Assembly (NCBI GenBank): GCA_964016885.1
Contig: OZ024743.1
Coordinates: 300,948,001 to 301,012,000 of the forward strand
Length of the DNA: 64,000 bases
DNA from: Eledone cirrhosa
Taxonomy: Eukaryota
Direction: 5' to 3'
How positions within the stretch are numbered: position 1 is the first letter of the stretch; the number at the start of each line of letters is the position of its first letter. The notes below the pieces were generated by a model. The model saw nothing but the letters and a program-made list of their open reading frames with translations, was not told the DNA's origin and searched no databases. This document shows, piece after piece, positions 7,731-61,802 of the stretch. The position numbers and the translations under genes were made by a program.

Positions 7731-8413
7731 AAGATGTTAATTCTGATGCAGCTGATGAATATAAAGAATTTCATTATAGTAGGAATGATGACGTTATTAA
7801 TGTTATTAAGGAATTGTAAAAGGTTAGAAGTAAGAAAAAGAAAACAAAAATGATGAATTATTTTTACATTGAATGTAAACAATTCTCTAACGAGCTAATC
7901 TGATTGCTAAAATGTAAATTTAGCCAATGTATATAAATATATAATAAATTACATTCCCGAAAACCCATCAACATTAAACGCACAAAATCCTTGTGATAAA
8001 ACTAAGAGTAATAATTAGAAAATATGTTGATTTAGCTAGAGAGAATATGTTGACAGTGCGATAAAAAGTATTATATCGTTATGATCCTTAATTGTTTGAA
8101 ATACTAGTGTTTACTTTTCGAAGAAAACAAGTAAACCACATTAAAACGATACGTAATTCTTCTGTAAAGTAGCCATATAAATTTTATTTTGTTTCAAATC
8201 AAGACTACAATGTGAAATTCATTAATATATATATATATATATATATATATATATATATATATATATATATATATATATATATATAGAGAGAGAGAGAGAG
8301 AGAGAGAGAGAGAGAGAGAGAGAGAGAGAGAGAGAGAGAGAGAGAGAGAGAGAGAGAGAGAGAGAGAGAAAGAAAAAAGAGAATCAGTGTTACGACGAAT
8401 GGAATTTATTGGA

Positions 8414-8505
8414 CATATTACAATCGGTTCTCTGGCGACCAGCTCGAGGCACAATTTATTTGATGATCGAACCTGACTCTGAAAATCGCAAGTTCCTCAG
8501 ATACG
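8414..8505 (-). ncRNA. Hammerhead ribozyme, left arm (GAAA mutated to GAAC)
   Basis: cgtat-CTGAGGA-long stem II (gcga/tcgc)-GAAC-cgatt-GTA-atatg. Confidence 0.55.
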
Positions 8506-8588
8506 TTTTGATTCTACGAAGCAGATTTTGCTATGTCCTTTTACATCATGTAAAAGGACATAGGAAAATCTACTTCGTAGAATCAAGA

Positions 8589-8680
8589 CGTATCTGTGGA
8601 CCTTGCGATTTTCAGAGTCAGTTTCGATCATCAAATCGATTGTGCCTCGAGCTGGTCGCCAGAGAAACGATTGTAATATG
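8589..8680 (+). ncRNA. Hammerhead ribozyme, right arm (core mutated to CTGTGGA)
   Basis: cgtat-CTGTGGA-...-GAAAC-gatt-GTA-atatg. The consensus of the two arms gives an intact core. Confidence 0.55.
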
Positions 8681-10590
8681 TCCAATAAATTCCATTCGTC
8701 GCAACACTGATTCTCTTTTTTCTCTAACATACTCTGCTCTATGAGATCATCGAGTGCTCATACGGCCTACCGCATACGGACGCTTTAAGCATCCAACACC
8801 AAATATATATATATATATATATATATATATATATATATATATATATATATATATATATATATATAACGATGAGGTTTAGTTTACATGTATGAAGTATTTT
8901 ATTGTGTATCTACCTTTTACGTGGATGTTGCAGAGGAGTGGTCATAGTTACCCATAAAAGTTAAAGACCCGAATCCAGCACCGATCTGCTCTTCAGTCTG
9001 GTGATTCATCGAAAGCCACCCTATTTATTGTGATAGGGTACTGATCTCGCATATTTTCTCTCACCAAATTTAACCACACCAAACGTCAAAAGAAATAACT
9101 ATCAAACTTACTAATATATCCCTAAAATAATTTCTACTTGGAAAATCCACCATGAAGACTGCACATTTCATCATAGATCCGTTCGATTTAAACAATAAAT
9201 ACGGGTGGGGTAAACCATTTCCAAATCATGAGTAGGTTGACTGATCTGCTGAAAGTTAGAGTGGATTTTTCTACTAGTCATATAATCAGACGATTTTAGT
9301 AATGTGTTCTAATGAGGACTAGAATTTCTTAGATCATAGGTATATTTAATCACGTTTAACCAATACTAAAGGATAACAATAACTAATTTATATGTCTACA
9401 ATTCTATGTATTTGAAATATCACTAACATTGTGTAGTTCCATTAATATACTATAATATTTCCCCAGTTAAGTAGTAGTGTCACGTCATCTAAAACAACTT
9501 AATCGAAATTCCATACGAGCATATAAAACATATTAGCGAGACAACAATATTGAAATCATGAAACACAACGCTTATATTACCATGTTTCATCTAATTATGT
9601 ATTATTTATACATCAATTTCGGTTTTGATATTGCGGCGCCATATTATACATTATACGTGCGAAGTATATATATTGAAGTGATAGCATGATACAATGATTC
9701 ATAGAAATTTGAACATCCAAAGTTTGAAGTAACACTTCAAATTACCAAGATGAACCAATATATTTGCGATGTACTCTCATGTCCATCAATATAGGTATAC
9801 AAGTATGTATGTTTATATGTGCATTTATATACATACATACACACACACACACACACATATATATATAAATATATATATATATATTTGTGTGTGTGTGCGT
9901 GTACATACATACAAACACACAAACACACACACACACATATATATATATTTAGTTAGCACCCCGAACGCATAATTGGGAATATAATTACTTATTTCCTAAT
10001 GTTTGTTGAGTGAGTTGGAATTTGGCCGGAGTATCGCTAAAAAGCTTTCTCCGATATTGTATGTATTTATTATATAGTAGCCATATAAATATATATATAT
10101 ATATATATATATATATATATATATATATATATATATATATATATATATACGTGTGTGTGTGTATGGACATAAAAACACATACACAAACACTAACTACATG
10201 CATACACTTAAATGTTTTCTGTAATTTTATAATCATACCATAGCTATTGACAGTTAGTTTCGTTACGCTGAAAAATGTAAGAACATTACAATTCGGTATA
10301 TGAGTGCAATGTAAACACTTTATAATATAGACTGTACGTACATGAGTATGCTGAGATACAACCGGTCCTGGCATTGATAAATATGCTGGGCCCGTCAAGT
10401 CTTTATTATATATTATAATTGAATAGAGAAGAAAGCCAAACACAGATATATACATATATGTGTTCAAATCGTAAGGGACCAGATACGCTAAGGCGAAAAG
10501 AATACTCAATATGGTCAATAGGGTTTGCCAGACTCAATTTAAGTATAAATCAAGAAAATAAATAGAAACCGGAATTGTGGTAACTACCAA

Positions 10591-10670
10591 TCACCCAGAC
10601 AGCTTTGGCTATGCTGTTTCGCAAAATTAATTGTGAAGCGGAATGCCGATTCTTGCTCATCAGTGGATGA
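10591..10670 (-). ncRNA. Canonical type I hammerhead ribozyme in a PLE 3' end (element end ~10460)
   Basis: tcatcca-CTGATGA-gcaa...ttgc-GAAA-cagc atagccaaa gct-GTC-tgggtga: 7-bp stem I, stem III acagc/gctgt, GUC triplet. Confidence 0.88.
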
Positions 10671-58663: not shown

Positions 58664-59898
58664 AATATTATTATTATTATTATTATTATTATTATTATTA
58701 TTATTATTATTATTGTTAATTTCTTTTCGTTGATATATTTGTTCTGTTATAATTTTTCTGGTATGATTTCAGAAAGAATAGTGAGTGACGTTATATATTT
58801 CGCATGATTAGTACATAACTATTACGCTCTTTATCTACATTCCAAAATAATTAACATATGTATCAGAAATGTGTGTAGTTATTTAAATACATCACATTAT
58901 TTCACTAACTTAAATGACATCGACAACTGCTAAGCAAGAATTATGATTTCCATGATTCTTCGAAATGTATTCTGTATTCCCGTCCATTGCTGTGGAACAG
59001 TTAATCTATTATCAAGCTATATCTGAGTTCTGCAATTAATATCTAAATGCTCAAATTCCTTGCTGGAACTACAAGACGTGTATTCTTTAACCTATTGTAT
59101 ATGATATCTTGAAATTCCGCGTTAAATTACTTATATGAATCATTAGAAACGAACTGATATATATCTTATTATTATACCCGCCTTGCAGTGTATTAATGAA
59201 GTATTATTTTTGTTTCCTTTTTTGTCGGAGTTTATATTAACTTTTTAATTTCAAAGTGACTACGATATTTAGTTTCCTGATTGTACATTCAGAAATAAAT
59301 TGCATTTTAGACAAAACAATTAAATTTCAACATTCAATACTTGTGGCAGTCATAATTCGTATGGCGGTAAGTTAATGTAATGAAATTTACGTATCGAAAT
59401 GAATGTATAGTTCTTCCTCAAAACACCCCCCCCCCCACACACACACACGCACACTAACACACACACACGCACACACACACATATACGCATACACACGCAC
59501 ACACATATCTATCTATATATATATATGTAAATAAATATATACGGGTGTGTATGATTGTGTATAGAAAATTATATTAAAAAAGGAATTCCAACTTTGTCTG
59601 ATTAACTAGTTTTATTTACAATCCTTTAAAATTATAATGATATTATAATAATATAGCATAGTAGAATATTAAATGTTAATTGAACAAGTACTTCCATGCT
59701 TATAATTTTAATGGACTGTAAATATAACGAGTTTGTCAGCCAGAGTTATATATATATATATTAGAAAGTGAGGTTTTTTTTACAAAATGAAAAATAACCG
59801 AGGTGTCCTACACGAGTGAAAGTATAAAGAAAAAGAGATGAAATCGAAAATGCAACTGGAGTCTTATTTTTAAAAAAAATATATATATTTATTTGGTT

Positions 59899-59937
59899 CC
59901 TTTACCGGTTCCGCAGTCCTTCTGCTTTTCAAAAGGT
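59899..59937 (-). ncRNA. Minimal U3-A8 hammerhead, GAAA mutated to GGAA
   Basis: acctt-TTGAAAA-gcag aagga ctgc-GGAA-ccgg-TA-aagg. Confidence 0.6.
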
Positions 59938-60535
59938 GAGTTATTAAAAAAAAGCCTTCGTGAGCCACCTTTTTTTAAGGTAAACATATTCAAAAACACA
60001 CACACACACACACACACACACACGCACGCACACACACAAGCACACAAATAAACACACATATCTTTACTTTCTTTATTCAATAGAAAATCTGAATTCTGTC
60101 ATCCCAGCGAACTAACCATATTCTCCCATCCCTTTCTCTTGACCATTATCTTTTACTCATCAAAAAATTCTCTAAAAAGGCTACAGAATGGATTTCCAAA
60201 TAAGGGCACAAAAATTTAATGAAAATTTGTTCACGTGACAGCCATAATTTCATTTGTAACCAACCAAAAAAAAGCCTTCGTGAGCCTCCTTTTTTCAAGT
60301 AAAAAGAAATTCAAACACTCATATATGAAAAAACAACCTGTGACAACCTCGGCCCCTCTTATTTGAAGAACTATTGTAACGCGAACTGGCGCGAAATTTA
60401 TTATAATTATTGACAAACCAATCAAATTTCTTCTCGAAAAACCTGGCATTTCGAGCCACTTTTTCCATATAAAACAAGTAACATTCAGAGACCAACCAGA
60501 TGTGAGAACAACCACAGACCCTCCATCTCAACTCA

Positions 60536-60573
60536 CCTTTTGAAAAGCAGAAGAACTGCGAAACCGGTAAAGG
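60536..60573 (+). ncRNA. Minimal U3-A8 hammerhead ribozyme
   Basis: cctt-TTGAAAA-gcag aagaa ctgc-GAAA-ccgg-TA-aagg. Confidence 0.78.
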
Positions 60574-61802
60574 AACCAAATAAATATATATATTTAAAAA
60601 AAATTTTCGATTTCATCTCTTTTTCTATATATATATATATATATATATATATATATATATATATATATATATATGCACACCAGTGTTAGTAGAAAGTTCA
60701 TACCTCCGATATTTAATGTGTACTTAAATTGTTTATGCGATTCTATTTGATGAGAAACAAAGTTGAACAGTTATATCACCCGGTTTGGTTGTTGTTCTTT
60801 CAGTATACCATAACATATATTTTGATTTAAAACGTTTCCACACACGTTTACGTAATAGTGACTGATGCCTCTCAGCCTAAAAGCATTTTTTCGGTTACTT
60901 TAATGTCTTGTTTCATAATAATCTCACTGCGAAACCTATATATGTAGAGCAATTTTACGAACCTGAAAATCTTCGTTGTTGTTCGCTGGCTGTCATAGAT
61001 GCATATAGCGCTAATATACACGTTGTCATCCTCACTTTATGAAGAACTAGTCTAATGCATTTGTAGTATTCACAAATGTATTATATAACTGAACTTTCTT
61101 TAATGTAATAAAGAATTTGGTACTAATGTGAAAGACATTTGCAAATAATGTTACAAACTATTCGATAGATGTAGAAAAAAATTTACAAGTTATGTGTAAG
61201 CGGTGAAATTTATGTGGTTGTATGTCGGTATGTAAGTATCATGTATGTATGTATGCATGCATACATTTATATATATATATATATATATGTGTGTGTGTGT
61301 GTGTGTGTGTTTATACATATATATATACTTATATATATATATATATATATAATATATATATATATATATATATATATATATATATATATTATATCCTTGC
61401 ATGTAATTATATGTTTGTGGAAGAATGTATGCGAATGTACTGCAAATGCAATAGGACATCGGAAATTAATAAAGAATACAAATATATACAATTATATTAG
61501 TATAACGTAGACAATACTTACGGACAAAACGTATATACATGACCATATATACACACACACACACACACACACACACACACACATATATATATATATATAT
61601 ATATATATATATATATATATATATATATGTAAATATACATACATCTATATATATATATATAAGCAAAAGGAATATGCAATGTGTTGCTAATTCAACAAAT
61701 ATAAATGATTATAACTGATTCAGAGCACTCGATAGTTTTTCTGGAGTGTAATATTCAATGATATTAAATAAATGGAAACTATATTTATGAAACGATATTT
61801 AT

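Follow-up and report, generated by a model that had tools for sequence, protein, structure and literature searches.

The 64,000-nucleotide stretch analysed here (the window: Eledone cirrhosa, NCBI GenBank assembly GCA_964016885.1, contig OZ024743.1, positions 300,948,001 to 301,012,000 of the forward strand) holds several inverted pairs of repeat arms. From their sequence features, the repeats are Penelope-like retroelements (PLEs) inserted in (TA)n: three families with Hydra-clade motifs, one Neptune-type family and one non-coding tandem unit. We call the families A (at 8.4 kb), B (20.5-27.7 kb), C (27.7 kb), D (42.7 kb) and E (43.5 and 59.8 kb). One arm of a pair has a 3' extension, the tail, that its partner lacks; the tailed terminus is referred to as the long end and the tail-less one as the short end. 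Across the genome this one-tail rule is nearly strict, and in four of the five families (A to D, with a variant second copy in B) each of the two ends lies just before its own copy of a repeated motif. We favour, with a probability of about 0.5, a reading in which two reverse transcriptases (RTs), one docked on each motif copy of a single RNA, prime from both strands of the (TA)n target, the products being joined by the host. The family features in the window are listed below.

8371..8802, inverted pair of family A: its arms are the 3' ends of a PLE whose endonuclease end is of Hydra type; left arm tail-less, right arm tailed.
8731..8755 (+), motif 1 of family A (ACTC..TCGAGTGCTC), within the tail.
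20545..27692, inverted pair of family B: left arm about 4.2 kb, tail-less; right arm about 3.0 kb, tailed.
23034..24770 (-), family B open reading frame (ORF), 5'-truncated, RT plus GIY-YIG, with Hydra-clade motifs (clade definition in PMC8557442, section 11).
24684..25208 (+), endonuclease part of the right-arm family B ORF (PF01541, E 8e-5).
27529..27536 (+), TATA-like box of family B; 26/50 B arm 5' ends lie 24-38 nt downstream, a putative transcription start.
27560..27610 (+), hammerhead motif of family B; core and stems by eye, differing from the minimum-energy fold; layout as in Hydra hammerhead ribozymes (PMC8557442, File S2).
27625..27692 (+), tail of family B, with motif 1 at 27631-27649.
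41043..42073 (-), single tailed family B arm, no partner seen.
27723..28215, inverted pair of family C, a non-coding 1297-nt tandem unit; hammerhead at ~28015-28088, motif 1 at 28147-28182.
18208..19570, second family C pair: left arm tail-less; right arm traverses the unit and breaks before the short site.
18377..18397 (+), motif 2 of family C (GCTC..TTGAGCGCTC), the copy found after the long end in read-through copies.
42684..43510, inverted pair of family D: short left arm tailed, motif 1 at 42732-42755 (-); long right arm tail-less.
5896..6196 (+), single tailed family D arm, motif 1 at 6124-6147.
17871..18177 (+), single tailed family D arm of a different subfamily, motif 1 at 18107-18130.
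43532..43895, inverted pair of family E, ends of a Neptune-type PLE; both arms begin about 30 nt downstream of the family TATA box.
59762..60627, second family E pair, with a tail on the short left arm and none on the long right arm; a TATA-like box lies at 60468-60474.

Pairs in the window were found by masked self-BLAST, and their ends were then read on the sequence. A first-pass annotation of this DNA had described six inverted pairs in which one arm is tailed and the other is cut off just before a hairpin, and all six proved to be genuine inverted repeats at the coordinates it gave, with their 3' ends facing outward. The tail-less arms end at ~8371 (adjoining (AG)n), 20544, 27722, 43510, 43531 and 60627, and their partners extend 65-80 nt further, up to a (TA)n run, in agreement with the 60-85 nt that had been estimated. 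The arms of a pair differ by a few percent and the pairs are therefore not read artefacts. That the cut-off falls just upstream of an ACTC stem was borne out for families A to D, whose tails contain ACTC..GAGT stems at the motif 1 positions listed above, and fails for the 43.7-kb family (E), in whose window tails no such stem is present.

The 3.0 Gb genome was searched with body-only queries, from which the tail was excluded, and 30 loci per family were taken from the best 40 scored candidates of each search. We added one tail-bearing family C query and fetched 80 wider stretches for unpaired arms. Tailed and tail-less primary arms from the body-only searches numbered 16 and 13 in A, 15 and 15 in B, 11 and 13 in C, 14 and 14 in D, and 16 and 10 in E. 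The 338 own-genome stretches contain 467 terminal ends: 397 are no more than 3 nt away from one or the other family site, and only 7 fall outside the windows around both. The expectations that ends recur at about the same base in independent insertions, and that a histogram of endpoints shows two sharp sites per family, thus held genome-wide. A pile-up of nine tailed D arms ending exactly at the short site was rejected as largely an alignment edge at a subfamily-variable stretch.

The pairing of the two end types is nearly strict. We listed 137 pairs, excluded four as not representing one insertion (D L096 323-1297, D L233, D L199 263-7045 and E L247) and corrected four labels by eye (E L235, an internal end; A L111; B L207; B L251). 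The resulting 133 same-family inverted pairs comprise 128 with one tail, one with both, none with neither and four with one odd end; scattered ends, or many pairs with a tail on both arms or on neither, were not seen. Leaving out the 16 C pairs from the tail-bearing query gives 114/117 with one tail, none with both and three odd. Seven further one-tail pairs were assembled across loci or from later fetches, one of which (L125/L126) was not seen end to end. Several apparently single arms do have a partner, though one no longer than 6-25 nt, and where its end can be read it is of the other type. Under independent choice at each end, with tails on about 50%, p is about 1e-39, a value that should be read with the possible non-independence of some identical junctions in mind. 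The end-site and pair counts support the idea, put forward in the first-pass annotation, of a second defined site tied to the motif and left as a footprint of PLE integration; between priming and cleavage at these sites, sequence alone does not decide.

In families A, C and D the two sites share a motif, RCTC...YYGAGYRCY, a copy of which lies 3-7 nt after each end. The short end precedes copy 1 in families A to D, and motif 2 (GCTC..YYGAGCRCT) is revealed, 3-7 nt past the long end, by read-through copies, of which there are 4 in A, 14 in C and 10 in D; single changes in motif 2 occur in two read-through copies of each of these families. The single hairpin originally proposed is therefore half of the picture: motif 1 does stand before the short end, but there is another copy just beyond the long end in families A, C and D, and a variant of it in B. 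Since the short end lies before motif 1 and the long end before motif 2, the tail is the spacer between two motifs. The motif followed by (TA)n gives 281 matches, roughly one for every 11 kb of strand in these loci, which are rich in repeats, a low density that makes chance placement unlikely.

The same arrangement is found in relatives, for which 78 metagenome contigs or loci were examined and 32 hammerheads passed a check of stem I. The motif lies 52-86 nt after the predicted cut in 24/32 hammerheads and two copies 54-82 nt apart are present in 15/32; the 8/32 without a motif include some in which the copy stops at the short site. A first test for ACTC..GAGT had matched only 4/92 plus-strand cores in the relatives, because these use GCTC..GAGC. 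The outer pair is G-C in 28/30 unambiguous cases in the relatives and A-T in 8/9 own-genome clusters (at least 5 members, 5' half present), a difference that reads as a compensatory change. At locus L292 the order is hammerhead, motif 1, motif 2 and ATG, and the 3' copy there stops before motif 1. In another relative, L273 (~300-500), motifs 1 and 2 of a read-through copy are separated by a (TA)n run at the long-end site, as if by self-site insertion. In the window itself the motif is also present in two further tailed ends, which belong to other families, at 61662-61870 (-) and ~42260-42346 (+), with outer pairs A-T and G-C; a hammerhead core is present at 61852 (-) and a diverged Hydra-type ORF at 62107-63129.

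The elements carrying these ends appear to be ordinary Hydra- and Neptune-type PLEs. A single ORF with an RT and, at its C-terminus, a GIY-YIG endonuclease, the hallmark of endonuclease-positive (EN+) PLEs, is found in B (PF01541) and E. The full B ORF, with one frameshift, is preserved in L201 and starts 48 nt after the tail, parts of the ORF were found in A and D, and the family C unit has no ORF. The pseudo-long terminal repeat (pLTR) of EN+ PLEs, formed by partial tandems plus an inverted copy with an optional tail, is seen in L201, L235, the read-through copies and the pairs. B reads RIRWRAF and SDKT at the positions of RWK and of DKT (instead of DKG), which together with the lack of GxKF characterise the Hydra clade, and the D N-terminus in the read-through copy L255 reads RLRWRTF. 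The B linker and C-terminus contain CNCLNKEAC (CxCX5C), CDLC and CMH, with no CCHH. The family A pair is tied via a 3' untranslated region (UTR) of about 2 kb to a GIY-YIG C-terminus with CKLC and CRH, Hydra-type motifs by which A was assigned. By these motifs, and by insertion in (TA)n, A, B and D probably belong to the Hydra clade. Family B shares with that clade as described (PMC8557442, section 11) RWR/RWK, DKT, the CxCX5C linker, a putative hammerhead and (TA)n, with parts of this set in A and D, as well as the CxxC and CxH that lie around the C-terminal E and N. Hydra-clade units are, however, generally below 3 kb (PMC8557442), compared to about 5.5 kb here, owing to a microsatellite-rich 3' UTR. 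Of 8000 candidates scored against the B protein, 1275 are related to it at E 1e-30 or better.

Family E runs without a break into a Neptune-type ORF in L235 (GLKF for GxKF, DKG, CGRSNCGTC for the CX2-5CxxC linker, and CKGC with two His for CCHH) and is probably Neptune-type by these motifs, with Nematis as the alternative. Three 1297-nt family C units stand in tandem, with a hammerhead fold, in L038-L040. Family C resembles non-LTR (long terminal repeat) retrozymes (bioRxiv 10.64898/2026.07.22.740005) in being a non-coding unit repeated in tandem, in its type I hammerhead and in the PLE type of its ends; it differs in its length of 1297 nt and in its inverted one-tail pairs. Candidate hammerhead cores and stems in the pLTR were read by eye in B and C (the C hammerhead region folds with z -2.9), with variant cores in D and E and a doubtful one in A, and an Rfam scan of the window returned 144 matches, none at gathering score and no hammerhead among them. 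The hammerhead-like folds at 43404-43500 (D) and 43718-43757 (E) have a core of UUGAYAA or UUGAAAA and a z of only about -1; the core change would be a U3-A8 swap of the usual C3-G8 pair. The fixed terminal inverted repeats and fixed length of a miniature inverted-repeat transposable element (MITE) or DNA transposon were not found in these elements: the ends are asymmetric, and arm lengths and junctions vary.

At the other side of the arms, 97 of the 148 arm 5' ends whose pair has a resolved junction fall 24-38 nt downstream of a TATA-like box (B 26/50, D 46/62, E 25/36). Arm starts cluster in A, with no clear TATA, and scatter in C. From the pile-up we infer run-off at the 5' end of the RNA. 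Some D arms end at or near the predicted ribozyme cut (L192 5156-5311, L049 1342-1460 and L071 ~2461-2580; both arms in L049 and L071), hinting that cleaved RNA also serves as template. One D arm, in L255 (6779-7227), runs from the short end to the putative start site, switches from there to around ORF codon 42 and goes back through the tail; it appears to be a miniature tandem from a template jump or a small circle.

The tail may be on the longer or the shorter arm, as the first-pass annotation had it: in 116 pairs it is on the further-reaching arm in 33, on the other arm in 34, and the arms are equal in 49. The palindromic centres and these 49 near-equal pairs would also be produced if a cDNA started at the long site snapped back and copied itself until the hairpin stopped it, and self-priming has been inferred from junction palindromes (PMC3846280). 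However, the tail-less arm reaches further upstream in 34/116 pairs, including the B, D and second E pairs of the window, and the tailed arm is nothing but tail in 10. Because a copy cannot contain sequence absent from its template, simple fold-back is contradicted for at least 34 pairs and is highly improbable as the general route, while it may still be the source of some equal-arm pairs. The central junctions (n = 100) show overlaps of 1-6 nt in 38, blunt joins in 10, filler in 39 and longer overlaps in 13; short overlaps and filler are expected of microhomology end joining. A few D junction types recur (e.g., -136/-140 four times) and TA-like bases lie at both end sites, as might be expected if the rule were simply inherited, either from a few palindromic master units spreading like MITEs or through later deletions into (TA)n that trimmed one arm. 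We give this very little credence: arm lengths span ~12 nt to kilobases, junctions mostly differ, the rule is common to five families, and deletion would not spare exactly one arm.

The two arms of a pair also belong together. An arm is closer to its own partner than to the mean of the other arms in 76/94 comparisons, and D subfamily tags, read by eye, match between arms in 19/21, by which measures the arms of one pair would share a source.

In the reading we favour, the GIY-YIG endonuclease would nick both strands of the (TA)n target. The protomer on motif 2 would prime just 5' of motif 2, giving the long end, and that on motif 1 just 5' of motif 1, giving the short end, with priming often aided by 1-4 nt of TA-like pairing; neither enzyme would copy its own motif. 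There would be one end of each kind because two enzymes cannot share one site. Each enzyme would then copy toward the 5' end of the RNA, with the enzyme downstream either displacing the one ahead of it or trailing behind, and host microhomology end joining would link the two cDNA 3' ends. A plain transcript would in this way yield palindromes of about 200 nt, and long arms would need read-through, template jumps or circular RNA. Docking, the dimer, the single RNA and strand displacement are the parts of this scheme that we infer. A more specific form, that Hydra-clade PLEs have two tandem RT-docking hairpins on one RNA and that a dimer, with one active site loaded before each hairpin, primes both (TA)n strands together, seems to us possible, at somewhat less than even odds.

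A number of observations weigh against this scheme. The second copy in B is a variant, GCAC..GTGC (13 read-through copies), and the Neptune-type family E lacks the motif yet follows the one-tail rule, with only TATAC(Y)YCAC repeated at both of its ends. As a hairpin the motif is weak (z +0.4 to -1.9): the tails are no more stable than shuffled sequences, the ACUC/GAGU stem is in the minimum-energy fold of only 2/5 tails having it, the C and D two-motif regions fold differently, and the inner three pairs are invariant. The motif may thus be a protein-stabilised stem or a sequence motif. Its conserved sequence, near-palindromic 3' half and poor RNA fold would also suit a motif that is read in DNA, where an endonuclease would cut an integration intermediate beside motif 1 or motif 2 and the ends would be cleavage sites. 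'EN-mediated resolution' has been proposed (PMC8557442), and the D. virilis endonuclease needs the tail for DNA recognition, as cited in PMC11167929. We nevertheless consider DNA cleavage unlikely: RT starts map in vitro to both tail boundaries (PMC11167929), the outer base pair covaries on one strand, and cleavage alone leaves unexplained why a pair has just one tailed and one tail-less end.

Docking of both enzymes on one RNA faces further points of this sort. One clean both-tail pair exists (L005). Seven pairs consist of a tail-less arm and a partner interrupted before the short site and are unscorable, as is L143/L144; six of the seven lie elsewhere, and the other is a seventh window pair, C 18208-19570, missed in the first-pass annotation, with neither arm tailed. 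The break in its right arm comes roughly 9 nt ahead of the short site and has no (TA)n at it, which makes the pair a possible neither-tail case. Many arms are single with no detectable partner, the transcription start is putative, and the similarity of paired arms could stem from gene conversion or from one active source. Both arms mostly copy the same RNA stretch, which on one RNA requires strand displacement, and two pairs mix families, which needs two RNAs or a later rearrangement. These are L045 1401-1908 (C with E; tail/no tail) and L221 7423-7608 (D with a B-like arm; tail/tail); a supposed mixed pair in L096 was rejected as a same-strand chimera. The mixed pairs, and arms that overlap, sometimes for kilobases, are readily explained if the same two motif-defined sites are used on two RNAs, the first and second priming differing by order or geometry. 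However, there are 2 mixed-family pairs against 133 same-family ones, arms match by subfamily, and L221 carries two tails. Moreover, a choice of site by order has no explanation in the sequence, whereas two motifs on one RNA provide one. We therefore regard the use of two RNAs as doubtful.

The observation itself is real and in outline already known. A tail on one end only was published by Craig et al. 2021 (PMC8557442), where the origin of the inverted repeats and of the one-sided tail is stated as open; a partial answer is given in PMC11167929. Arkhipova et al. 2013 (PMC3846280) described inverted pLTRs of which one carries a tail, and proposed self-priming. As in the published cases (PMC8557442, PMC3846280, PMC2377424), an inverted 5'-truncated copy lies at the 5' end, targets are (TA)n, and the tail, in many cases confined to one end, lies at the ORF start or immediately ahead of it. 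The published tails measure 30-40 nt, in contrast to 65-79 nt here, where the rule has been counted and a repeated motif follows both ends. D. virilis Penelope has a 34-bp repeat and an internal TATA-less promoter (PMC2377424), which differs from our reading of a TATA box. The closest parallel is PAc, the Poseidon (Anolis) PLE protein, for which in vitro work showed both target strands being nicked and extended, with RT starts at two internal RNA sites, one at each boundary of the tail (Frangieh et al. 2024, PMC11167929). PAc also has an upstream hammerhead, as is likely here, and is predicted to be a dimer. The parts of that paper drawn on here report no strand difference in start site and no coupling of sites within one insertion, and the PAc site is an AC-rich stem loop inside the ORF, whereas here the sites are in the 5' UTR, each before its own motif copy. 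The parts of PMC8969392, PMC13282606, PMC12910113 and bioRxiv 10.64898/2026.07.22.740005 that we drew on add no mechanism. The twin motif, a counted one-tail rule and a 5' pile-up after a TATA box were not found in the literature searched, whose scope left aside older subscription papers and picture supplements.

In twin priming of LINE-1, a long interspersed nuclear element (LINE), reportedly described by Ostertag and Kazazian in 2001, two target-primed cDNAs are said to be joined head to head with short overlaps. In that system the position of the second LINE-1 primer reportedly varies and the arms cover separate stretches, whereas here the starts are fixed and the arms mostly duplicate the same stretch.

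The window also holds other repeats and gene fragments besides the pairs listed above. A dispersed short repeat, presumably a tRNA-derived short interspersed nuclear element, is present at 14245-14411, 32408-32653, 38351-38766 and 63705-63824, with two copies head to head at 38.4 kb; elsewhere, in L128 (1378-1397), 19 nt of its 3' end form the inverted partner of a tailed D arm. A palindromic family at 20194-20462 and 42417-42651 has a common centre, lies between TA runs and has no ACTC tail, and other diverged inverted pairs lie at 13255-13437, 29848-30035, 33805-34465, 39159-39326 and 39753-40202. A separate Neptune-like PLE fragment occupies 14709-15789 (+), a LINE with RVT_1 and zf-RVT lies at 11134-12768 (-), and several decayed LINE copies are found at 46000-58700 (-). 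An exon-like frame at 36441-36914 (-) has a von Willebrand factor C domain (PF00093, E 1e-7) and, we assume, resembles a CCN-family host gene.

For annotators, the abundant TA-flanked palindromes of about 200 nt in this genome are PLE ends and not MITEs, and the motif helps to find Hydra-type ends. The twin motif, the near-strict rule and the TATA pile-up make the open question of PLE integration directly testable in vitro. PLE RTs form the sister group of telomerase, and a defined RNA element that sets the start of the template is of wider interest. If the scheme proposed here is true, obligate fixed-site twin priming would account for three features of all EN+ PLEs, namely their tail, inverted pLTR and tiny palindromes, and a telomerase-related enzyme would have an RNA element resembling a template boundary, with the spacing of its copies setting the length of the tail.

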